From an uncultured Verrucomicrobiae bacterium (GTDB lineage Bacteria; Verrucomicrobiota; Verrucomicrobiia; Chthoniobacterales; Chthoniobacteraceae), in NCBI GenBank assembly GCA_963823615.1, contig CAWGMG010000017.1, forward strand, positions 52,730-116,729: 64,000 bases of DNA. The letters run 5' to 3'. Positions 8,625 through 58,843 of this stretch are shown here, in pieces. A program made the translations under genes and the position numbers. The notes beneath the pieces were generated by a model. That model saw only the letters and a program-made list of their open reading frames with translations, made no database searches and had not been told where the DNA came from. Numbering within the stretch: the stretch's first letter is position 1; each line of letters opens with the position of its first letter.

Positions 8625-8650
8625 GTCTGACAGGTCTGACAGGTCTGACG
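8625..8650 (+). repeat. 3x tandem 9-mer GTCTGACAG (inverse copy CCGTCAGAC x3 at 35529-35561)
   Basis: gtctgacaggtctgacaggtctgacg; ~410 nt upstream of the ECF sigma gene. Confidence 0.7.
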
Positions 8651-9059
8651 TGGGCAAATTTCGCCAGCCTCCGACTCCAAACCGGTGCAAATCTGTAACA
8701 AATTGTAACGAAACTCCGGATTCCGCCCACCTCGGGCCGTTCAATTGAACATTCGCCGGCCTGAGCTGTCTCACTTTCTGCGCCTTGAGCCCTCCGAAGG
8801 GGCGCTTCATCCCATGACGATTTTCCTCCTCTCTCTCGCGGCTCTTGGCGGGGCGCTTTGGCTTCGTGAACTCGCGGCGGCGCAATGTGCGGCGCTCGTG
8901 CGGGTCCGGGTGCGGCGCGGCCATTTTCGTTCCTTGAAATCATGAGCTCGGCGACCTCGATCTTTCCCCGGCGGAATGGGTGAAGCGTTCTTTCCCTGGG
9001 GCGCGGCGCCCGAAACAGCTTCCCCACCTGCCGTCGCGCCTGTTACGAAGCCGCGCACG

Positions 9060-9641
9060 ATGGAAGACGCCGGCCGCAAGCTCGACGACGCGCTCGTCGC
9101 CCGCACCCAGGCAGGCGACTCGGTGGCGTTCGATGAGCTCGTGGTGAAGTATTCGCCGCGCCTCTACGGCCTCGTCTACAACATGACCTCGAACCACGAG
9201 GACACGAACGACCTGCTGCAGGATGTCTGGGCCAAGGCGTATCGCTCGATCAAGGGCTTCCGCATGCAGTCGAGCTTCTACACGTGGCTGCACTCGATCG
9301 CCGTCAACATGACGATCAACTTCCTGAAGAAGCGCGGCCGCCGGCACTCGGTGAGCCTCGATGACGTCGAGAGCGGGGTGCAGAACGACAAGGAGTTTCT
9401 CGAGCTCACCGCGACCACGAATCCGGTGCGCGAGGCGGATCTCGGCGAGCTGCAAAAGCGGCTGAACGAGGCGATGCTCAAGCTCTCGGTCGATCACCGC
9501 GCGGTCGTCACCATGTTCGACATCCAGGGGATGCCGCACGCGGAGATCGCGAAGATTCTTGAAGGTGTCCGAGGGGACGGTCCGTTCGCGGCTGTTCTAC
9601 GCGCATCGGCAGTTGCAAAATTTCCTGACTGAGTTTCACTA
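9060..9641 (+). CDS. ECF-type RNA polymerase sigma-70 factor (frameshift near C-terminus ~9570)
   Basis: Region 2 (LVVKYSPRLYGLVYNMTSNHEDTNDLLQDVWAKAYRSI) and region 4 (DHRAVVTMFDIQGMPHAEIAKIL). After a 1-nt shift the frame ends ..TVRSRLFYAHRQLQNFLTEFH*. Confidence 0.85.
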
Positions 9642-9659
9642 GCCGACCTGTACCGCCTT

Positions 9660-10131
9660 ATGACTGAAGAACAACTAAGCGCCCTGCTGCGGCTGAAGCG
9701 CCACGAGCAGCCGCCCCCGGGCTATTTCGACGATCTGCTGCGCGCGGTGCATCGCCGCCAGCGCGAGGAGTTGCTCCAGCGCCCGCTGTGGCGCATCGCG
9801 CTCGAGCGGCTGCAGTGTTTCTTCGGCGAGGCAGCTCCTGGCGCCGGTCTCGTACGCCGGCGTGCTGGCGGCGGTGGCCGTGGCGGGGGTGTTCACGATC
9901 CAGTCGATGAATCCCACGAGCGCATTCCCCCGGACAGGGCGAAGTTGCGACGACGGCCGCGATGCCCAGGCCACCGGAGCATCCGGCGGACCGGGCGCTG
10001 ACGCTGCAACAGCGGCATGAGCCGCTCATTTCGCAGCAGCAATTGGACGCGCAGATCGGGTTTGCGTCGAACGCGCCCCGCTATGTCATCGATGCGCGGC
10101 CGGTGAGTTATGAGGCTCCGTCTTCGTTCTA
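9660..10131 (+). CDS. putative anti-sigma factor (frameshifted)
   Basis: Directly downstream of the ECF sigma; N-terminus MTEEQLSALLRLKRHEQPPPGYFDDLL typical of anti-sigma N-domains; a TM segment appears in a shifted frame (LLAPVSYAGVLAAVAVAGVF); stop overlaps the next gene start. Confidence 0.45.
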
Positions 10132-11187
10132 GAGGCGTCTGGCTGGCCGCCGGGCTGGCGGTGGGCGGGGCGACCGTGTGCGCCGAGCCGCCGGGGCCGG
10201 CCAATGTCTTCGACCTGCTGCAAAAACAGGTGCAGCAGGAGATGGACAAGTGCCGCGACGCGGTGGTGCGCATCGAGTCGATGGACGAGCACGGGAAAGT
10301 GGCCGGGACCGGTTTTTTCATCGATCCGAACGGGCTGCTCTACACCTCTTTCACAGTCGCCGGGGAATCGCGCGACATCTTCGCCCGCTGGGACGGCGCA
10401 CAAGTATCCCGCGCGCCGGCTGGCCGCGGATCGCCGCTGCGGCCTCGCCATTTTGAAGGTCGACGCGCAGACCGCGTTCGTGCCGATCGGCCGCTCGGCG
10501 ACGCTCTCGACGGGCTCGCCGTTGATGACGTGCGGCTACCCGATGGACTTCCCGCTCACGCCGAGCTTCGGCCTCCTCGGCGGCTTCGAGCGCAAATACA
10601 TGGACCGCTATTTTGCGACGACCCACTTGCGGGCGAATCTCTCCGTGCAGCGCGGGGAAGGCGGCGCGCCCTTGCTCAATATGCGCGGCGAGGCGGTCGG
10701 CATTTTGATCGCGAGCCTGGATCAAGGCGGCGCTTCGTTTGCGCTGCCGATGGAGGCGGCGGAAAAAGTGCGGCGCGACCTCGCGCGCTTCGGCAGAATC
10801 CGGCAGGCCTGGCTCGGCTTGCAGATGGAGACGGCGGAGCAACCGACGCTCGGCTCGACCGCGCTGGTGCAGGATCTTTTCCCCGATTCGCCCGCGCTGA
10901 AAGCGGGCATCCACGTGGGCGATTCGGTCCTCGAGATCGCCGGCCGCAAGATCGCGAGCCCGGAGGACATGATCGACGCCTCGTTTTTCCTGAGCGTGGA
11001 AGACGCCGCGCCGGTGCGGCTCGCGCGCGACGGCGCGGAGTTGACGGTGCAGGTTACGCCCGTCGACCCGCCGCGGCCGGCGGGGCCGCCGGCGGTCCTC
11101 GGCTCCACGACGCGATCCCGCGCCGGCCAAGCCGTTCGAGCTGGGGAGCGGAAAATAGCGGCTGAAAATCAAGGGAGTTCTCTTTGA
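10110..11187 (+). CDS. HtrA/DegP-like S1C fold protein with PDZ domain; catalytic triad residues substituted (H->F, D->G, S->G), putative pseudo-protease; frameshift ~10405
   Basis: GTGFFIDPNGLLYTSFTV (His position is F), GLAILKVDA (Asp position is G), RGEGGAPLLN versus canonical GNSGGPL (Ser position is G); PDZ motif GIHVGDSVLEIAGRKI. Confidence 0.7.
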
Positions 11188-11220
11188 CATGGAGCGAAAC
11201 GCCCGCCTAGCCTGCGCGCC

Positions 11221-12042
11221 ATGAGGATCCTCGTGAACCATGACGGGCAACAGCTTGGCCCTTACTCCCTGGAAGAAGTGCGCGCCGCGCTGCAGGCCGG
11301 CTCGCTGAATGCCGGCGATCTCGCGTGGGTGGAAGGGACGCCCTCGTGGGTGCCGCTCTCTCGATCGTGAATGCGCCGGACGGCGGCGCAGCTTTCGCCG
11401 CCGCGACCGCGCAGTACGCCTCAGCTGCCGTACCAGCAGGTGGGCGAAACCTCGGGTCTGGCGATCACGAGCCTGGTCCTGGGCATCGTCTGCGTACGTC
11501 CTCTTCTGCATCGGCTTCTTTTTCTCCATCCCCGCGATCATCTGCGGACACATCGCCCGGGCCAATGTACGCAACTCGCAAGGCCGGCTCAAGGGCGACG
11601 GGCTCGCGCTCGCCGGGCTGATTTGCGGTTATGTTCACCTGGCCATCTTTGTGCTGTTTATGGCCTTTGGCGCGGTGACTCCGGCCATCAGCGGAGCCTT
11701 CGAGAAGGGGCGCGAAACCAGCACGATGAACGACGCGAAGCAGATCAGCACGGCGTGCATTCGATACGCGAGCGATCACGACGGGAAGTATCCCGATTCG
11801 CTGGAAGAGCTTGCGGACAAACAGGGGCTCGATCGCAACGGTGCTGCAACGGCCCCGGCGGCGGCTGGTTTCGATTACTTCGGCAAAGGGAAAACCCAGG
11901 CGGGAATCACGCAGCCGGATCGACGACGGCGATCGTGGCGGCGAAGAACGCGAACCGCCAGGGCAAGCGGGTCGTCGGGTACGCCGATGGCCATGCCAGC
12001 CTGGACACGTTTACGCCGGAGGACGCGCAAACTCGGTCCCGA
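11221..12042 (+). CDS. DUF4339(GYF-like)/DUF4190 membrane protein with H-X9-DG-like C-terminus, split over three frames
   Basis: MRILVNHDGQQLGPYSLEEVRAALQAGSLNAGDLAWVEGTPSWVPLS; TM segments FCIGFFFSIPAIICGHIA, LICGYVHLAIFVLF; C-terminus VVGYADGHASLDTF. Confidence 0.5.
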
Positions 12043-12108: not shown

Positions 12109-12900
12109 TGAAAATCCCCACCCTCCTCGCCGCCGCGCTCGCCCTTAGCACCGCCTCGCCGCTTCACGCTGCGATCAAGACGGAAGTCATCCCTTACGAA
12201 CAGGGAGGCACCAAGCTGGAAGGCTTCCTCGCGTACGACGACGCCAGTCGCAAAGCCGCGGCCTGGCGTGTTGCTGATCCACGACTGGATGGGCGTGGGC
12301 GACTACGCGAAGAGCCGCGCGAAGCAGTTGGCCGAGCTCGGCTACGTGGCCTTCGCGGCGGACATCTACGGCAAGGGCAACCAGCCCGCGGACCAGAAGG
12401 CCGCGGGCGCGCTCGCCGGCCAATACAAGGGCGACCGCGCGCTCTACCGCGCGCGGCTGAAGGCCGGGTACGATCAGCTCGCGGCGCGGAAGGAAGTCGC
12501 GCCGGGAGAGATCGCCGCGATCGGCTATTGCTTCGGCGGCACCGGCGTGCTGGAGCTCGCGCGGAGCGGTGCGAACCTCAAGGGCGTGGTCACTTTCCAC
12601 GGCGGTCTCGCCACGCCGACGCCCGAGGACGCGAAGAACATCAAGTGCCCCGTGCTCGTGCTGCACGGCGCGGACGATCCATTCGTGAAGCCGGCGGAGG
12701 TCGCGGCCTTCAAGGAGGAGATGGAGAAGGCGCACGTGAAATACGAGTTCGTCGCCTACCCCGGCGCCGTCCATTCCTTCACCCGCCCCGATGCGGGCAA
12801 CGACAACAGCAAAGGCGCCGCCTACAACGAAGCCGCCGACAAGCAATCGTGGGCGGCGATGCAGAAGTTCTTCAAGGAGATCTTCGGAGCGAAAGGGTGA
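12109..12900 (+). CDS. dienelactone hydrolase family protein (frameshift ~12262)
   Basis: Signal peptide MKIPTLLAAALALSTASPLHA; DLH motifs GVLLIHDWMGVGDYAK..IGYCFGG..VLVLHGADDPFV..AYPGAVHSF. Confidence 0.8.
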
Positions 12901-16779: not shown

Positions 16780-16924
16780 CAGAGACAATCAGACAATCAG
16801 ACAATCAGACAATCAGAGTTCCTAGCAGACGCGCGTCGGAACGATGGGGTGAGTTCGGAATGAACGTCACGTGCGCTGCACTCGTGCGGCGCCCCATTCT
16901 GATTGTCTGATTGTCCGATTGTCT
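16780..16924. repeat. inverted arrays of octamer CAGACAAT (4x, 16780-16817) and ATTGTC(T/C)G (3x, 16899-16924) flanking ~80 nt; long hairpin/cruciform potential
   Basis: cagagacaatcagacaatcagacaatcagacaatcagag ... ctgattgtctgattgtccgattgtct; lies between the hisS stop and the trx start. Confidence 0.7.
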
Positions 16925-19350: not shown

Positions 19351-19956
19351 GGCTGGGGATAGCCAGGAAAAGCCTACTTTCGCGAGGCGAATTGAGCCAG
19401 CCCAAATAACCCTTCGTGCGGCTTCCGAAGCGGCAGAGAACCGGCCGCAGGCAAGGTGCGGTTACCTGCATGAGGACCGCCGCGTGCGGGTGGCGGCTGA
19501 TGGCAGGGCTGCGAAGACCGCGCCCGCTCAGGCGTGACCCTGATTGCGAGCCGCCGGACGAAATAAAAGTGAAACACTTTTCCAATAGGAGTTGTGAGAA
19601 TCGGTGATTGAATCTTGGGGTGCTCACCGTGCCCTCATCCTCCCGGCAGGCTCAGAACCTCTGGCCCACCGCGGCAGCTGCGCAGTCGCCAAAGGCCCCT
19701 GAGCTTGCCGGCTGGGGAGTGCGTGCGCGGCCGCGCGGCCATGAATGCCGGGGGCCGAACCAGGGCCACGATCGATCGCAAACCGCTCCTGCCCGCGCAA
19801 GCGGCGGAGCACGCCAAACTCCACGCTGCTTCACGTGGTCCGCACAGTCCTCTGTGCGGTCGCCGCTTTCCGGGAAGATCGTCAGTGGCCGCGTTCGTTG
19901 TCTCTCGTTTGAAGCGGCTTCCCATAAAGCCGCGAAAGTCACGCTCGCCCACGCTT

Positions 19957-20590
19957 CCTCTGAGACCGATTCCCGAAATTCCCGAAATGCGCCCCCCACC
20001 ACTCAGCCGACGGCGTAAACTGTGCAAGCCTTCCCGAAACTCACCGCGCCTGCGTTTTTCCTCTGAGACCGATTCCCGTAATTCCCGAAATGCACCCACT
20101 CCCACCCGCTCAGCCGCGGCGAAAACCGTGCAATCCTTCCCGAAACTCCGCCGCGCCCGCGCTTTTCCTCTGAGACCGTTTCCCGTAATTCCCGAAATGC
20201 ACCCACTCCCACCCGCTCAGCCGCGGCGAAAACCGTGCAATCCTTCCCGAAACTCCGCCGCGCCCCGCGTTTCTCCTCTGAGACCGATTCCCGTAATTCC
20301 CGAAATGCACCCACTCCCACCACTCAGCCGGTGGCGAAAACCGTGCAATCCTTCCCGAAACTCCGCCGCGCCCCGCGTTTCTCCTCTGAGACCGATTCCC
20401 GTAATTCCCGAAATTCACCCGCTCCCACCACTCAGCCGGCGGCGAAAACCGTGCAATCCTTCCCGAAAATCCGCCGCGCCCGCGTTTTTCCTCTGAGACC
20501 GATTCCCGAAATTCCCGAAATTCACCCACTCCCACCATTCAGCCGGCGGCGAAAACCGTGCAATCCTTCCCGAAACTCGCCGGGCCAAAC
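19957..20590 (+). repeat. tandem array, 6 units of ~103-109 bp (unit starts ~19957, 20060, 20167, 20275, 20383, 20490)
   Basis: Unit cctctgagaccgattcccgtaattcccgaaatgcacccactcccacc..gcgaaaaccgtgcaatccttcccgaaactccgccgcgcc.. repeated with few substitutions; unit lengths are not multiples of 3. Confidence 0.9.
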
Positions 20591-25536: not shown

Positions 25537-28500
25537 CTACCGGCGCGGTGCAGGCCGGAGCGACAGCGATTCGTTCTCGGAGCGCAGCTCGACGGCGTCC
25601 GGTGGCGGCACGGTCCTCCGATCATACGGCCAAGGCGTGGAAAACAACACGGAGGGTGTGGGCAGGAAGCGCGGCGGCTGCGAGGGCGGGTAGGACTGAT
25701 AGAACGGCGTCGCCGCGCGGAACGGGCGGACGCGGTCGCGCTCGCCTCTGGGATAATCCATGGAGCTCGGCTGATAGCTTCTCGTTTCCGGCGTGCACGA
25801 GCGAATCACCATGTTCAGCAGGATGACGCCGAAGAAGATCCAGCGTCCGATGGACAGGGGACCCATGGATTTGCCGCCCCCCGGCTGGCGAATCCAGCTC
25901 GACCGGTACCGCTCGCCGGCGAGCTGCGCCATCAGCCCGACGGCCCGCCGGGTCACCGGCTTGAGCAGCCCGCCGTGCAGATAATTGGCGGTGGGGGATT
26001 GGTTGAGCCGAGCGATGCGGTTGCGCAACTCCGCGGGCCGGCCCGCGGCGGGCGTCCGGTGGACCGAGAGCCCGGCATTCACGACCTCGCGCAGCGCATC
26101 GTAGAACGCGCCGTCGCCGCCGAATTGCGCCGCGCTGGCGAAGCTTGCCGCGTCGTCGAAACGCTGCGCCAGGAGCGCGTCGGAGGCCATCCACAGCTGG
26201 TGGTGGCGCGTCGTGTGATCCGGCGGTTCGGCGAGCGCGCGCCGGCTGGCGGCCACGCCTTCCGGCACGCGTCCCAGTCGCCGGAGCACGACCGCCACGT
26301 TCAACAAAATCCACGGCGGAATCGACGGGCGCCGCTCCCACTCGCGGAACCAGGCGGCCGCTTCCTTGTTCTGATTGAGCTGCACCAGGATCGCGCCGGC
26401 CTGGCCCCAGAGCTCCGTGTCGGCGCGCAGGGCCGGGCCGGAGGCACGCAGCAGCCACCGCAGCTCGTCGAGTTTGCGGTGCTTCGCGAGGCGCTCGAGG
26501 TAGGCGAGGTGCGCGCGCTGGCCGACGGGCGTGGTGAACCCCAGGAACGCCAGCGCGCGATAGGTGCGCGTGCCGCCGCGCTCGCCGACGAGTTCGCCGA
26601 AGAGCCCACCCGCCGCGGGCGAGGCGCCTTCCTCGGTCAGCCACGAGGCCAGCCGCTTTTCGAGCTCCTGCCGCTGGCCGGCGGCGAGGAGCGCCTGCCC
26701 GGCCGCCGCGACCGCGGAGCCGTCTTCGTCGCGAGTGAGGCAGAGCTGCCGCATCGTTTCGAGCGCCTCCGGGAACTCGCGCCGGGCGAGGTGGAGCCGG
26801 ACCTCGCCACCGACGGTCGTGGCGCCGGGGAGGTGCAACTTCATGCGCGCGAGCACTTCCGCGGCCTCGTCGAAGCGCCCGGCCTTGAGGTGCTGCTCGA
26901 AGAGATTGTGCGAGGCGAAGCCGTAGGAGGGATCGAGCTCCATCGCGCGGCGCAGAAACGGGAGCGCCTCCTCCGCGCGATTCGCACGCAGCAGCAGGCT
27001 GGCGCGCCAGCCCAGGGGAATGGCGCTTTGGGGAGCGAGCCGGCAGAGTTGTTCCGTCGCCTCGAGCGCCCCGGGGAAGTTCTCCAACTGCGACTCCCAC
27101 TCGACCAGCCGATGCCAGCCCCAGGTGAAATCCGGCTCGTCGCGCAGCAGCGCGCGCATCGCGGTGACGGCGCCGTGGAGATCGCCCCGCTCGGCGTCGA
27201 CCCAGACCCGGCGGCCGCGCAAGGCGACGGGAAGCTGGTCCGCGGGCCATGCCGCCGGAGCGCAGGCCGCGGCCGCCTCCTCCCAGCGGCCGGCGCCGGC
27301 CAGCAGCAACGCGCGGCCGTCGTGGGCATCGCCAAACCGCGGATTTAGCGCCAGCGCGCGATCGATGGCCCCGAGGCGTGCCGGGAGATCGGTGACGGGA
27401 AGGCATTCCGCGAGGCGCAGCCAGGATTGCGGCTCGGCGGGCCGCAGCTCCGTGAGCGAACGGGCGCATTGCAACGCGCGGCCCTCCAAGCCTGGGCGTT
27501 GCGAGAAGCGGCGCAGCAGATCCCAGCCGGCCTCGTGCCCCGGCTCCAGCCGCAGCGCGCGCTCGGCGGCTTCCGCGGCGGCCTCGGCACGGCCGCGTTT
27601 GTCGAGCAGCGCCGCCAGGTGCGTGTGATTCTCGGGATCGAGCGGCGCCGCGGCGATCGCCACCTCGAGCACGCGCTGCGCCTCGTCGAGATCATCCCCG
27701 CGCTCGTGGGCGGTCGCAAGCGCGCGGGCTGCTTCGCCGCAGGCCGGCTGCAGGACGAGCGCGCGGCGCAGCGGCCGGATCTGCTCCACGCGTTCGCCGC
27801 GCGCCACGTGGACGCGGGCCAGGTTCAGCCAGAGCGGCACGAGCAGCGGGAAACGCTCGGTCGCCTCGGTCGCGAGGGTCAGCGCCTCGTCGAGCTGCCC
27901 CATGGCGGTGAGCTGTTGCACCGTCGCCGACCACGCGTGCCACAGGTCGGGACGCGCGGCGAGCGCCTCGCGCAGTCCGGCCAGCAGCTCCGGCGGCTCG
28001 AGAATCGGGAAGGCCAGATTGCGATAAGAGAGCAGGCCGTCGCCCAGCACCACCTGGCGAATGAGCTCCTGGCGAATGAAGGCGATCGACTCCCGGCGCT
28101 CGCCAAAGCTCTCGCTCGCCGTCAGCAGCTCAACCATGGCCGGCGTGTGATCGACCGAGAGCCGCAGCCCTTCGCGCGCCGCCTCCCGCGCCGCGGGGAG
28201 ATCGCCCGCGAGCCGCGCGAGCAGCGCGCGGATGGCGCAGTTGATCGGTTCGCTTCGCTCCAGGGCCTCGGCCCGCGCCAACTGTTCGCGCGCCTCCGGC
28301 AGGTGCCGCTGATCGGCCAGCGTGAGCGCCAGTTCGCGCCGCGCCCAAGCGTCGTCCGGATTCATCGCCAACAGCGCCTCGACCGACTCCTGCAGCGCCG
28401 CCGCGCCGCTCGCCCGCGCCGATTCCACCGCCAGCCGGCGCAACCCCAGGTGATGCGGGAAGCGCTCGATCTGCGCGGCCAGGTGCGCGTTGGCGGCTTC

Positions 28501-30867
28501 GCGTCCCGCGGTCTCCGCGGTCAGGCGCCCCACGCAGTTGTGCGCATCCATCGCCAGCGGCTCGGCGGCCAGCACCTCGCCCCAGAGCGCGAGCGCCTCG
28601 CGCAGATCGCAGCGATAATCGGCCAGCGTGGCGGCGGCCCGCAGCCACGCGGCGCCCGCGGATCGCTCCTTCGCCTGGGCCAGCAATCCGGCGGCGCGGT
28701 CAAAATCGCCGAAGCGGCCAAACGCGTCGGCCGCGAACAGCAGCAGATCTCCATCCGCGGGGCGCAAGGTGAGCGCGTGTTCGAGCCGCGCAAAGGCCTC
28801 GGGGTGCCGGTCGAGCACGCTCAGCGCCCAGAAAAGCACCCGCGCCGGTTGGGCGGAGAGCGCCGCGTTTTGCTCGAAGCGCTGCGTGAGCAACTCCACC
28901 ACGCGGTCGGCCTCGCGCAGATGCCGCGCGGCCATGAGATACGCCCTGGCGAAACCGTCCACCTTGTCGCGCAGGCAGGCCGCGTGCCGGTAAAGCTGCG
29001 TGGCCACGGCGAACTCCCGGCCCGCCCAGCGCAGATCGCCGAGCGCCGCGAGATTGGCAGCGTCCAGCGCCTGCGCGCGCACGCTGCGCGTCAGCCAGCG
29101 CAAGGCACGGCCCTGTTCGCGCGCGTCCTTCGCCAGGTGCTGCCCCCATTCCCGCCAGAAGGCCGGCTCCGGCCCCTGCGCGAGCTCCCGCAGAAACGCC
29201 TCGGCTTCCGGCGCGTGCCCGAGCTCGCGGAGGAGGGCAAGCTTCGGATACTGCAGGTGGCCCGCCGTGGGGAAGCGCTCCAGCAGCGCCTCGAGCGCCC
29301 GCAAGCCGCGCGCGTGATCCGCATCGTACGCAGCCAGCACCCGCTCCGCCTCGAGCGCGAGCCGATGGCCGGGCGAGCCGGTGTGCAATTCACCGAGCAC
29401 CCGTTCCGCGTCGGCCCGCCGATGCTCATGCAGCGCGCGGCGCACCTGGAAATAGCGGTCGTATTCGGCGGCGTCCGGCAACTCCAGCCCCTCCAGTCGC
29501 GCCGCGTCCGCCACCGGCAGCAGCACCATGCCGCGCGGGCCGCTGGAGGCGTAACGCTCCAGCAGCAGCTCCGCAAAAGCCTCGCCATTCGTTCGCTCAA
29601 ACGGATCGCGGATGAGCAAAGTCCCGCGGGCGCGGTCGTACCCGATGACGGCCTGGAGGTGCGCGCTTTGCGTCTCCAGCGTCACCATGGTGAAGGGCAG
29701 GCCGCGATCGAGCAGCGCGAGCGCCGCGTCCCAGGTGACGCGAAATTCGCGCACGGCCCAGCCGTTCTGCTGGAGCCATGCGCGCTCTTCGTGATCCGGC
29801 GTGCCGTCGTAGCAGATGAGGCGCGCCAGCGAGAGGTGATCGATGGGCGCCCCGAGGAAGATGCTGAGCGCGCTGAGCGTCGCCGGCGCGCACGTCATGT
29901 GATGCTGGCGCACAAAGGGGACGGGCAACAGCACACGGCCCGTCTGCGCGGGCGCGCCATTCGCCGCGGTCAGGCGCTCGTGGAGCCTGGCGAAGAAGGG
30001 CGTCCCCGCCTTGGCCGCCGCTTCCGCCGCCGCTGCCACGTCGCCACAGGCATAGTGCGCATCGGACATGCGCCCGTGCCACCACGCGCTGACCTCCTGT
30101 TCCATGAGCGGCGAGAGATCGGCGCAAAGCTGGTAACTTTTCAGCGCGCCGGGGTGGTCGCCGAGCTCCGCCTGCAGGGTCGCCAGGGTTGCGGCGAAGA
30201 CGGCGCATTCCGTGTGCTGGAGCGCCTCCTGGAGCAGCGCCACCGCGTCGTGATCGCGTCCGAGCAGCGGGAGCACCTCGGCGGCGGCGCAGACCGCGCC
30301 ACGAAACCACGGTTGCAAACGCAGGCCCTCCTCGGCCGCGGCCAGCGCCTGCGGGTAGCGGTCGCGCGCCTTCAGCAACTCGGAGCGCAGCACCCACGGC
30401 CACGGGCGGGGCTCCGCATGGATCTCCCCCGCGCGGTCGAGATGTCGCTCGGCCTCGTCAAAATCACGAAACAGGGTGAGCACGGCGCACCGGGCCAGCT
30501 CCAGGTCCGCGCGCTCCTCGTCGGTCGCATTGGGGAACGCCGGCCGGAGCTCGAGAAAATCCCAGGCGCCGCGTGGCCCGCGCTCCCGCAGCAAAGCGTA
30601 CGCCCGGAAGTACGCCGCCGCGGCGCTCGTGCGATCCTCGCGCCATGCGCGCTGGTGCAGCCGCCGCGCCGTCCGCGGCGCGCCGATGTTCGAAGCCAGA
30701 CGGCCGGCGACCAGGGCGGCGGCCGTGCCCGACCACGCCTCCAGCGGCGCGACCTCCAAAGCGCGCCGGTGCGCCTGCAGGAGAAGCCCTCGATCGTAGA
30801 GCGCTTCCACCGCAGCCACATCCGCCATCGAAACCGTCACACACGCGCGCGCTGGGGAAGCAAGCAT
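25537..30867 (-). CDS. giant TPR-repeat protein with embedded papain-fold C39-like peptidase domain and C-terminal TM segment
   Basis: Dozens of TPR-like helical repeats; peptidase region VPFVRQHHMTCAPATLSALSIF..TQSAHLQAVIGYD (Cys..His); C-terminal WIFFGVILLNMVI. Confidence 0.65.
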   Translation of the reverse strand: MLASPARACVTVSMADVAAVEALYDRGLLLQAHRRALEVAPLEAWSGTAAALVAGRLASNIGAPRTARRLHQRAWREDRTSAAAAYFRAYALLRERGPRGAWDFLELRPAFPNATDEERADLELARCAVLTLFRDFDEAERHLDRAGEIHAEPRPWPWVLRSELLKARDRYPQALAAAEEGLRLQPWFRGAVCAAAEVLPLLGRDHDAVALLQEALQHTECAVFAATLATLQAELGDHPGALKSYQLCADLSPLMEQEVSAWWHGRMSDAHYACGDVAAAAEAAAKAGTPFFARLHERLTAANGAPAQTGRVLLPVPFVRQHHMTCAPATLSALSIFLGAPIDHLSLARLICYDGTPDHEERAWLQQNGWAVREFRVTWDAALALLDRGLPFTMVTLETQSAHLQAVIGYDRARGTLLIRDPFERTNGEAFAELLLERYASSGPRGMVLLPVADAARLEGLELPDAAEYDRYFQVRRALHEHRRADAERVLGELHTGSPGHRLALEAERVLAAYDADHARGLRALEALLERFPTAGHLQYPKLALLRELGHAPEAEAFLRELAQGPEPAFWREWGQHLAKDAREQGRALRWLTRSVRAQALDAANLAALGDLRWAGREFAVATQLYRHAACLRDKVDGFARAYLMAARHLREADRVVELLTQRFEQNAALSAQPARVLFWALSVLDRHPEAFARLEHALTLRPADGDLLLFAADAFGRFGDFDRAAGLLAQAKERSAGAAWLRAAATLADYRCDLREALALWGEVLAAEPLAMDAHNCVGRLTAETAGREAANAHLAAQIERFPHHLGLRRLAVESARASGAAALQESVEALLAMNPDDAWARRELALTLADQRHLPEAREQLARAEALERSEPINCAIRALLARLAGDLPAAREAAREGLRLSVDHTPAMVELLTASESFGERRESIAFIRQELIRQVVLGDGLLSYRNLAFPILEPPELLAGLREALAARPDLWHAWSATVQQLTAMGQLDEALTLATEATERFPLLVPLWLNLARVHVARGERVEQIRPLRRALVLQPACGEAARALATAHERGDDLDEAQRVLEVAIAAAPLDPENHTHLAALLDKRGRAEAAAEAAERALRLEPGHEAGWDLLRRFSQRPGLEGRALQCARSLTELRPAEPQSWLRLAECLPVTDLPARLGAIDRALALNPRFGDAHDGRALLLAGAGRWEEAAAACAPAAWPADQLPVALRGRRVWVDAERGDLHGAVTAMRALLRDEPDFTWGWHRLVEWESQLENFPGALEATEQLCRLAPQSAIPLGWRASLLLRANRAEEALPFLRRAMELDPSYGFASHNLFEQHLKAGRFDEAAEVLARMKLHLPGATTVGGEVRLHLARREFPEALETMRQLCLTRDEDGSAVAAAGQALLAAGQRQELEKRLASWLTEEGASPAAGGLFGELVGERGGTRTYRALAFLGFTTPVGQRAHLAYLERLAKHRKLDELRWLLRASGPALRADTELWGQAGAILVQLNQNKEAAAWFREWERRPSIPPWILLNVAVVLRRLGRVPEGVAASRRALAEPPDHTTRHHQLWMASDALLAQRFDDAASFASAAQFGGDGAFYDALREVVNAGLSVHRTPAAGRPAELRNRIARLNQSPTANYLHGGLLKPVTRRAVGLMAQLAGERYRSSWIRQPGGGKSMGPLSIGRWIFFGVILLNMVIRSCTPETRSYQPSSMDYPRGERDRVRPFRAATPFYQSYPPSQPPRFLPTPSVLFSTPWPYDRRTVPPPDAVELRSENESLSLRPAPRR

Positions 30868-52498: not shown

Positions 52499-53210
52499 GG
52501 AATTACGGGAATCGGTCTCAGAGTAAATGAGGGAGCCGGGTGAGCCGGAGGCCCTGAACCTGTCGAAGGGTTTCGGGAAGGAACGCGCAGTTTTCGCGGG
52601 ACGCGTGGGCGTGAATTTCGGTAATTTCGGGAATCGCGTTCAGAGTAAATGAGGGAGCCGGTGAGCCGGAGGCCCTGAGCCTGTCGAAGGGTTTCGGGAA
52701 GGATTGCGCAGTTTCGCGGGACGCGTGGGCGTGAATTTCGGTAATTTCGGGAATCGCGTTCAGAGTAAATGAGGGAGCCGGTGAGCCGGAGGCCCTGAGC
52801 CTGTCGAAGGGTTTCGGGAAGGTTTGCGCAGTTTTCGCGGGACGCGTGGGCGTGAATTTCGGTAATTTCGGGAATCGGGCTCAGAGTAAATGAGGGAGCC
52901 GGTGAGCCGGAGGCCGTGAGCCTGTCGAAGGGTTTCGGGAAGGTTTGCGCAGTTTTCGCCGGTTCCGGTCGTCCCATTCTTCCCCTGCTTCCCGTCCCCG
53001 CGCCCGGTCCGCGACCAATTTCGGTAATTATGGGAATCACCCTCAGAGCGAATGAGCAGATACGGAGGGTAGTTTCGGAACAGATTGCGCAGTTTCGCGG
53101 GAAAGATGGCAGCGCGAGTTTCGGTAAGTGTGGGAATCGCCCTGAGAGTGAATGAAGGACGCGGAGTGGCATTTCGGGAAGGATTGCGCGGTTTCGCGAG
53201 ACGGCGGCCC
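52499..53210 (-). repeat. tandem repeat array part 2: ~4 near-identical 120-121 bp units (starts 52499, ~52613, ~52733, ~52854) then ~2-3 degenerate units
   Basis: Unit gaatttcggtaatttcgggaatcgcgttcagagtaaatgagggagccggtgagccggaggccctgagcctgtcgaagggtttcgggaagg(a/t)ttgcgcagttt(t)cgcgggacgcgtgggcgt. Confidence 0.9.
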
Positions 53211-58715: not shown

Positions 58716-58797
58716 GCACATGGGGGTCAGCACATGGGGGTCAGCACATGGGGGTCAGCACATGGGGGTCAGCACATGGGTCAGCACATGGGGGTCA
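58716..58797 (+). repeat. tandem 14-bp repeat cacatgggggtcag x~6, an amplification of a unit present once at 57199-57212
   Basis: cacatgggggtcagcacatgggggtcagcacatgggggtcagcacatgggggtcagcacatgggtcagcacatgggggtcag. Confidence 0.85.
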
Positions 58798-58843
58798 GGC
58801 GACATTTCTTGACAGGCCGGGTGGGTTTTCGTGAAATCGTCGC

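Follow-up and report, generated by a model that had tools for sequence, protein, structure and literature searches.

On the forward strand of a 64,000-nucleotide stretch from an uncultured Verrucomicrobiae bacterium of the family Chthoniobacteraceae (assembly GCA_963823615.1, contig CAWGMG010000017.1, positions 52,730 to 116,729; this whole stretch is hereafter the window) we found an operon of three genes: one for an RpoE-like extracytoplasmic function (ECF) sigma factor (8942–9642), with a core from the ATG at 9060 and a probable extension from the ATG at 8942; one for a putative single-pass, anti-sigma-like membrane protein of ~157 residues, reconstructed from three reading frames (9660–10132); and one for an HtrA homologue of ~349 residues which we predict to be catalytically dead (10110–11158). 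The last of these is composed of a signal peptide, an N-terminal helix, an S1C-like protease domain and one PDZ domain; it lies on the plus strand, as do the other two genes and the promoter-like motif and mini-ORF upstream of them. A sequence-only reading of the window had placed the HtrA-like gene at 10110–11187. Its start was correct; however, 11187 is a stop in the wrong frame, reached after a second frameshift, and the gene ends at the TAG at 11156–11158, where the C-terminus (..PAKPFELGSGK) matches that of a close metagenomic relative, L091 (..QPFELGGK). The overlap between stop and start codons described in that reading was confirmed, the anti-sigma stop (10130–10132) lying beyond the HtrA-like ATG at 10110 such that the two genes overlap by 23 nucleotides (nt).

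This layout was derived by a three-frame translation of 8976–11250 and its comparison with L091, which is 88% identical at the nucleotide level and has intact frames in all three operon genes. The window (GC content ~0.64) carries many 1-nt indels throughout, and relative to L091 all of its operon genes (9000–11200) are frameshifted: there are extra single bases near 9556 in the sigma gene, near 9832 in the anti-sigma gene, and near 10394 and 11110 in the HtrA-like gene, with a further anti-sigma frameshift within 9915–9960 and one near 8960–8980 in the N-terminal extension of the sigma gene. Because neighbouring genes carry like 1-nt insertions versus L091, we read these as assembly-wide errors; the pattern fits assembly indels rather than pseudogenes.

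The HtrA-like protein retains a chymotrypsin-type fold (10302–10749), with a Pfam match to Trypsin_2 over residues 66–199 (4e-14), followed by a PDZ domain (10795–11067) that matched PDZ_2 over residues 236–316 (2.5e-10), with PDZ_6 and PDZ also matching, and that has an intact carboxylate-binding loop (R232..W235-L-G237-L). A phmmer search against the PDB identified DegP-like proteins (2.6e-27), MucD (8k2y; 1.5e-25), M. tuberculosis HtrA (6e-23) and DegS (1e-19). An AlphaFold2 (AF2) model built from a 150-sequence alignment had a predicted local distance difference test score (pLDDT) above 90 over residues 30–324, PDZ domain included, with a predicted template modelling (TM) score of 0.82; it superseded a first model from a 25-sequence alignment, in which the protease domain had a pLDDT of 57. 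Foldseek matched the later model to the protease-plus-PDZ1 portions of DegQ, DegP, MucD, DegS and M. tuberculosis HtrA (E-values of 1e-26 to 1e-22, TM scores of 0.81–0.83), e.g., to DegQ 3stj_A with an E-value of 1e-26, a TM score of 0.81 and a root-mean-square deviation of 3.0 Å. The suggestion that an S1C fold and a PDZ domain are kept is therefore borne out by Pfam, phmmer and the AF2/Foldseek results alike, and the structural model that had been proposed as a check on it is a confident match to DegQ, DegP, MucD and DegS. The N-terminus of the protein, MRLRLRSRGVWLAAGLAVGGATVCAEPP, looks like a cleavable Sec signal, with A-x-A-type sites in its orthologues.

All three catalytic residues are replaced. 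In ungapped alignments LLYTSFTVAG pairs with YILTNNHVVA and YIVTNAHVIS of MucD and M. tuberculosis HtrA; these set Phe81 (10350–10352) opposite the residue preceding the catalytic His, and the His position is thus Thr82 (codon ACA, 10353–10355), a register that true HtrAs share. Phe81, the residue that had been taken for the His position, is ruled out by the same two alignments. Pairing of AADRRCGLAILK with GADPRSDVAVLK puts Gly112 (codon GGC, 10441–10443) at the position of the catalytic Asp, and pairing of RGEGGAPLLN with PGNSGGPLLN puts Gly185 (codon GGC, 10660–10662; GEGGAP versus GNSGGP) at that of the catalytic Ser. The sequence-only reading was thus right on the loss of the whole triad, as seen in these alignments, and on the Asp-to-Gly and Ser-to-Gly calls, and one residue early on the His call. 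It was also right in taking these changes as genuine substitutions and not as indels or base-calling errors, as the same residues occur in the intact L091 gene and across the family. With nucleophile, general base and Asp all absent, the protein is not predicted to carry out a site-1 cleavage of the DegS/AlgW type. It also scored well below the curated NCBIfam cut-offs, with 132 versus 416 bits for TIGR02037 (degP_htrA_DO), 82–83 versus 408–423 for DegS, 65 versus 756 for DegQ and 54 versus 720 for DegP; without a triad and below these cut-offs, it is on present sequence criteria a homologue of the MEROPS S1C family and not a peptidase member of it.

To place these residues in a wider family we inspected ~358 homologues from three clades of Verrucomicrobiota, of which the second and third were named from the source names of their database records: 120 close homologues, i.e., the best database matches (50–85% identity, from Chthoniobacter and other Verrucomicrobiota), represent the Chthoniobacterales; 118 are from Opitutae (Puniceicoccus, Coraliomargarita, Lentimonas and Opitutales); and 120 form a third, Methylacidiphilales-like clade comprising Methylacidiphilales and Verrucomicrobiota metagenome-assembled genomes. 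Many sequences of this third clade come from samples that, judged by accession, resemble freshwater metagenomes. An intact triad was found in none of the ~358. Among the close homologues position 81 is Tyr, Trp or Phe and position 82 is Thr or Ser, rarely Gly; the Asp position is Gly in every sequence covering that column; and the Ser position is Gly in ~115, Ala in two, Ser in two and Cys in one. The Opitutae proteins read Ser/Asn/Gly at the three positions in 117 of 118 cases, the Ser position being Gly in all 118, and those of the third clade read x/Gly/(Val or Ile, with one Met), with an intact triad in 0 of 120. A profile search of 1.8 billion representative sequences retrieved 1,710 proteins at E-values of 1e-30 or less; among the best ~60 matches with the three positions aligned almost all lacked the triad, and true His/Asp/Ser HtrAs appeared from ~200 bits downward.

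Other parts of the protein are strongly retained. The dead active-site loop, VQRGEGGAPLLN, is its most conserved stretch, and G183, G186 and P188 of the L1 loop are invariant or nearly so across clades. In the PDZ loop R232, W235 and G237 are invariant in the Chthoniobacterales set; across clades W235 is nearly invariant and G237 invariant, the third clade reading (R/K)HGWVGV and the overall pattern being R/K-x-G-W-x-G-V/L. Pairwise ratios of nonsynonymous to synonymous substitution rates (dN/dS) for the gene range from 0.04 to 0.29, values indicating purifying selection. The proposal that this is a pseudo-protease rather than a DegS-like site-1 protease is strongly supported by these results: there is no triad in ~358 homologues, the gene is under purifying selection, and the fold and PDZ loop are kept. 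Conservation of the substitutions in orthologues, which had been put forward as a check, was what we observed. We conclude that the family, as judged from its sequences, is an old pseudoenzyme under selection, anciently inactivated, and neither a decaying gene nor a base-calling artefact. Separately, we observed a degenerate HtrA subgroup (P0169, P0185, P0217, P0244, P0254 and P0268) in which the Ser is kept (PGQSGSP/PGESGAP) and His and Asp are lost; at least one of these (P0185, locus L085) is in a sigma/anti-sigma context, its anti-sigma having a zf-HC2 motif.

A scan with one genome per species found a relative of the HtrA-like protein in 176 genomes, and the best 80 of these, which we examined, were all Chthoniobacterales/'Spartobacteria'-type Verrucomicrobiota, including C. 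flavus Ellin428. Searches by tblastn with the window sigma and anti-sigma proteins located both genes directly upstream, on the same strand, in 78 of the 80 loci; of the four missing matches three were at contig ends (L013, L064), and the fourth was L047, where the anti-sigma was not detected. The anti-sigma stop and the HtrA-like start overlap by 23 or 29 nt in about half of the loci, and this overlap recurs in distant clades: all six loci from distant representatives had an ECF sigma gene, then a gene for a protein of 160–195 residues, then the degenerate HtrA gene, with the 23-nt overlap in three. Upstream sequence was sufficient in 66 of 80 third-clade metagenome loci, in 65 of which the middle gene was present (one open reading frame (ORF) call being doubtful); in each locus whose flank extended far enough, the sigma gene was found as well. 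In Verrucomicrobiota the degenerate HtrA gene thus has a fixed place, the third, in an RpoE-like ECF sigma operon: in the window, and in nearly every orthologous locus, it comes directly after the anti-sigma gene, as does the gene in the RseB/MucB slot. One metagenomic protein of 626 residues, P0149, resembled a natural fusion of the N-terminus of the anti-sigma with the degenerate HtrA; we rejected it as a likely indel artefact, given its Arg-rich middle that looks out of frame and the fact that the two genes overlap in different frames. Such indel-generated gene calls could mislead surveys of domain architecture.

The product of the middle gene had no Pfam or NCBIfam match. In the window it is homologous over its whole length (BLASTP, 7e-10) to a distant orthologue, the protein of locus L085, in which zf-HC2 is present (32 bits, cut-off 22), and its position and topology fit those of a cognate anti-sigma. 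An alignment of 79 of these sequences showed a conserved cytoplasmic N-terminus (LLRLKRYEQPPPGYFD..HRRQR.ELL), then a transmembrane segment, then a periplasmic part consisting of a ~60-residue linker with almost no conservation and a sharply conserved C-terminal peptide. This peptide, PRYVIDARPVSYEPSxSF-COOH, is the most conserved periplasmic part of the protein, its last residue being Phe in 71 sequences, Tyr in five and Leu in three. In the window it is encoded at 10076–10129 as the 18-mer PRYVIDARPVSYEAPSSF-COOH, which from its conservation across homologues is a candidate ligand for the PDZ domain or the former active-site cleft; the tail peptide we consider as ligand is PRYVIDARPVSYEPSFSF. 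The third-clade version of the tail is ..(R/H/P)(Y/L)(Y/F)V.......YD(S/A)..AF-COOH, with a terminal Phe in 65 of 66 loci, and other distant-clade tails end in VLF, VAF, VQF, LAF, LVY or LPF. The combination of a variable linker with a conserved phi-x-Phe C-terminus (phi denoting a hydrophobic residue) looks like a PDZ ligand.

The sigma factor itself is the most conserved of the three proteins. Its gene matched Sigma70_r2 (1e-16), Sigma70_r4_2 (2e-13) and Sigma70_ECF (1e-5) in Pfam, with sigma-2 and sigma-4 regions only, and scored 113 bits against the NCBIfam sigma70-ECF model TIGR02937 (cut-off 42.9); the best match, RpoE, reached 131 bits, below its cut-off of 236. Identity across 78 of the 80 orthologous loci is 68–93%, far above that of the anti-sigma (29–55%) and the degenerate HtrA (43–59%), and dN/dS is 0.01–0.07. 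The gene probably starts at 8942. Its intact form in L091 encodes 232 residues, and its orthologues have a conserved N-terminal extension of ~40 residues (MSFASALP..LWPAP..FPS..P.TKPRTMQD), the window copy of which (8942–9059) is frameshifted. The sigma factor is this conserved within the order (dN/dS ≤0.07), and the module has the look of the phylum's principal RpoE-like circuit for envelope stress.

Upstream of the operon is a consensus match to an ECF-type promoter, TTGAAC-N16-TGTCT (8745–8771), that resembles sigma-E-type promoters. At least 32 of 75 orthologous loci (e.g., L003, L012, L014, L017 and L021) have the same motif ahead of the sigma gene, and there the ATG of a mini-ORF or of the sigma N-terminal extension usually lies ~11 nt after the -10-like element. 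These observations fit an autoregulated ECF promoter with very short leaders, and the spacing suggests nearly leaderless transcripts. In the window the mini-ORF (8814–8945) encodes 43 residues, MTIFLLSLAALGGALWLRELAAAQCAALVRVRVRRGHFRSLKS, hydrophobic and then Arg-rich, its stop codon and the more upstream of the two sigma start codons overlapping as ATGA. Similar ORFs (33–43 residues, hydrophobic, Arg/Pro-rich) follow the promoter motif in ~13 orthologous loci; the mini-ORF had no Pfam match, and is possibly the fourth member of this module. A short, (near-)perfect tandem repeat, GTCTGACAG, lies in 2.8 copies (8625–8649) a little way upstream of the promoter motif.

Downstream of the operon the window has a gene for a GYF_2-domain protein (11211–11360) and a dienelactone-hydrolase-like gene (12268–12900), in the same order as in L091, where GYF_2 is followed by DUF4190; the neighbours of the module differ in clades further away, with a polyprenyl synthase gene on its upstream side and a fructose-bisphosphate aldolase gene on its downstream side. 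Elsewhere in the window are two tandem arrays, one with 5.9 copies of ~107-bp units (19955–20586) and one with 3.8 copies of ~121-bp units (52501–52959, plus 53019–53198), which share words like ATTTCGGGAAT/TCTGAGA in opposite orientation and may be one repeat family on both strands. Further short (near-)perfect tandem repeats are AGACAATC in 4.4 copies at 16783–16817 and a 14-bp unit in 6.1 copies at 58716–58798, and the GC content rises to 0.72–0.74 at 26001–30000 against ~0.64 elsewhere.

What might a dead HtrA do as a fixed partner of an anti-sigma? The PDZ domains of DegS and AlgW bind C-terminal YxF-type peptides, such as those on the ends of outer-membrane proteins (OMPs), and RseB binds the periplasmic domain of RseA and blocks DegS (PMC8103513). 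A PDZ-based role in sensing or regulating envelope stress, as the sequence-only reading had proposed, is plausible on circumstantial grounds, namely the synteny, the translational coupling and the OMP-like Phe-COOH tail. The reading we prefer, which we would put at about an even balance, is that the dead HtrA serves as a non-catalytic periplasmic partner of the anti-sigma that binds its tail and regulates it. It would hold the conserved C-terminal peptide (..RYVIDARPVSYEPSxSF-COOH) in the periplasm: the intact carboxylate-binding loop of the PDZ domain would receive the terminal Phe-carboxylate, and the dead, highly conserved active-site cleft may accommodate the YVID stretch upstream of it. 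Such an arrangement would amount to a DegS/DegP-substrate complex frozen before cleavage, in the gene slot of RseB/MucB and perhaps with their role. By holding the tail the protein could control the access of a real protease to the anti-sigma, either protecting the latter or presenting it for cleavage, and the signal could be competition by the exposed C-termini (phi-x-Phe-COOH) of unassembled OMPs.

In a more specific version, which we offer only tentatively, the logic of DegS would be reversed: the anti-sigma itself would bear, at its C-terminus, a degron or ligand like that of OMPs (..Y-[DE]-x3-4-F-COOH), capped by the PDZ domain, and perhaps the dead cleft, of a fossil site-1 protease that the overlapping next gene encodes; unassembled OMPs with like phi-x-Phe ends would displace this cap, and the tail would become exposed to a tail-specific or other protease, with release of the sigma factor. 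If true, this would be an envelope-stress sensor working by competitive displacement and built from a pseudoenzyme.

Several points weigh against a regulatory tail-binding role. Operon membership alone is no proof of one; mucD and M. tuberculosis htrA lie in comparable operons, yet their products act on other substrates (PMC13608001, PMC10027907). The window anti-sigma has neither a zf-HC2 segment nor a family match, and its anti-sigma activity is itself something that we infer. The tail is under some dual-coding constraint, since its codons overlap the start codons of the HtrA-like gene in about half of the loci; loci free of this overlap (e.g., L012, L014 and L016) keep the motif as well, and dual coding is thus not its whole explanation. 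Opitutae have their YVIE-like motif ~50 residues short of the C-terminus and share only the aromatic end, and a single fixed geometry of PDZ plus cleft therefore cannot apply to all clades. Lastly, the 150-sequence AF2 model was of the HtrA-like protein fused via the natural linker to the tail, a monomer chain with no alignment depth for the tail; its HtrA part folded well, and the tail, at a pLDDT of 28–54, was not confidently placed, which under these limits does not count as a negative.

The best surviving alternative, unlikely in our view though by no means negligible, is that the dead HtrA is a holdase or chaperone which belongs to the regulon and nothing more: co-transcribed for induction under stress, it would bind unfolded envelope proteins as protease-dead DegP does, and make no contact with the anti-sigma. 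The conserved HtrA fold, L1 loop and PDZ peptide-binding loop are consistent with such a function, as is the failure of AF2 to dock the anti-sigma tail, and degP is in the sigma-E regulon and mucD in the algU operon (PMC8103513, PMC13608001). However, a chaperone would leave unexplained why an OMP-like Phe-COOH peptide is kept on a variable linker in at least two deep clades, and why adjacency is invariant, with a frequent 23-nt overlap, in three sampled clades. The protein is also short and has a single PDZ domain, whereas the cages of DegP and DegQ use two.

A further alternative, which we regard as improbable, is a MamO-like activator or adaptor that recruits, or allosterically switches on, a protease performing the site-1 cleavage, be it an active HtrA paralogue or a tail-specific enzyme, possibly in mixed trimers. 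MamO, a dead HtrA homologue, activates MamE-dependent proteolysis (PMC4794232), and degenerate protease domains can mediate the trimerisation of DEG7 (PMC3194040); the evidence from synteny and from the tail applies equally to an activator, and these data do not separate a positive from a negative role. However, there is no active HtrA gene in the operon or in the 64-kb window, as the G[ND]SGG motif of active HtrAs is absent from all of its frames.

It is very improbable that the protein is a hydrolase with non-canonical residues, e.g., His173, Glu184 or Asp108. Within Chthoniobacterales there is no variation at H173, R175, N177 or D108, and position 184 holds Glu or Gln; but the three clades have Gly, Val or Ile in place of the nucleophile, apart from a few scattered sequences that keep Ser and lack His and Asp. 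Opitutae homologues do not have H173 (they read ..YLRTTIPANPGEGG..), and the near-invariant residues across clades are mostly Gly, Pro and structural. We give almost no credence to an artefact or a decaying pseudogene restricted to this genome, since the two frameshifts and a deposited gene call of a truncated, 244-residue product (P0004) stand against the like 1-nt insertions in neighbouring genes, the identical triad residues of the intact L091 orthologue, and the conservation of the family under purifying selection.

Tail binding by the dead HtrA would make this a naturally occurring case of a pseudoprotease that takes part in bacterial signalling. The module has no obvious site-1 protease; what it has instead is a dead relative of such a protease, along with an anti-sigma whose tail mimics the peptide serving as signal in the classical pathway, and this provides a concrete hypothesis in which regulated proteolysis of an anti-sigma evolves into, or from, pure binding. 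The public labels of these proteins, 'S1C family serine protease' and 'serine protease Do', are very probably wrong for the whole Verrucomicrobiota family. Both dead HtrA homologues and operons of sigma, anti-sigma and HtrA genes are known already, so this is not a new kind of system; the Phe-COOH tail of the anti-sigma is a new observation. In our literature search neither a dead HtrA in fixed partnership with an anti-sigma nor such a tail was found described, an absence that is no proof of novelty; a search on ECF modules of Verrucomicrobia, incomplete in its coverage, returned nothing relevant, and the main text of the ECF reclassification paper does not mention HtrA, PDZ or Verrucomicrobia.

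Among characterized systems, the operon is like E. coli rpoE-rseA-rseB(-rseC) with DegS in having an RpoE-like sigma factor, a single-pass anti-sigma and a periplasmic protein whose gene occupies the third slot, and it shares with the RseA/DegS system the logic of a PDZ-bearing protein of HtrA fold and of phi-x-Phe-COOH peptides (PMC8103513). It differs in that the third gene encodes an HtrA homologue and not an RseB fold, with no match to RseB/MucB in Pfam or NCBIfam; in that the YxF-like C-terminus is on the anti-sigma itself, instead of or besides the OMPs; and in that, compared with DegS, the protein is predicted to be dead and has a putative signal peptide in place of the N-terminal membrane anchor. 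The algU-mucA-mucB-mucC-mucD operon of P. aeruginosa likewise has a gene of HtrA/DegP type co-transcribed with those of an ECF sigma factor and an anti-sigma, and is autoregulated; MucD, which is among the best sequence and structure matches to the dead HtrA, has an intact triad and two PDZ domains and needs its protease activity for its regulatory role (PMC13608001), whereas here there is no triad and one PDZ domain. In addition, the HtrA gene here comes immediately after the anti-sigma gene and often overlaps it, equivalents of mucB and mucC being absent. In M. tuberculosis the genes for an anti-sigma and an HtrA are also in one operon beside an ECF sigma gene (sigE / rseA-htrA-tatB; PMC10027907); however, that HtrA is essential, active and membrane-anchored and acts on a cell-wall amidase, whereas the protein described here is predicted to be inactive and secreted.

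Two further systems are comparable in their loss of catalysis. MamO of magnetotactic bacteria is also an HtrA fold with a degenerate active site and non-catalytic roles, including the activation of a partner protease (PMC4794232). There is no specific relatedness between the two, the window protein scoring 29 bits against the NCBIfam MamO model (cut-off 800) and falling outside the MamO/di-His group. MamO also has a transporter-like C-terminal domain, which is absent in the dead HtrA, and its role lies in biomineralisation rather than with a sigma operon. The second protease domain of the plant protein DEG7 is similarly an HtrA domain without catalysis, specialised in protein-protein interaction (PMC3194040), but it is an internal domain of an active eukaryotic enzyme rather than a stand-alone protein, and has no link to a sigma factor. 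Taken as a whole, these comparisons place the dead HtrA closest to RseB/MucB by position and perhaps by role, and it is homologous to DegS, DegP and MucD.

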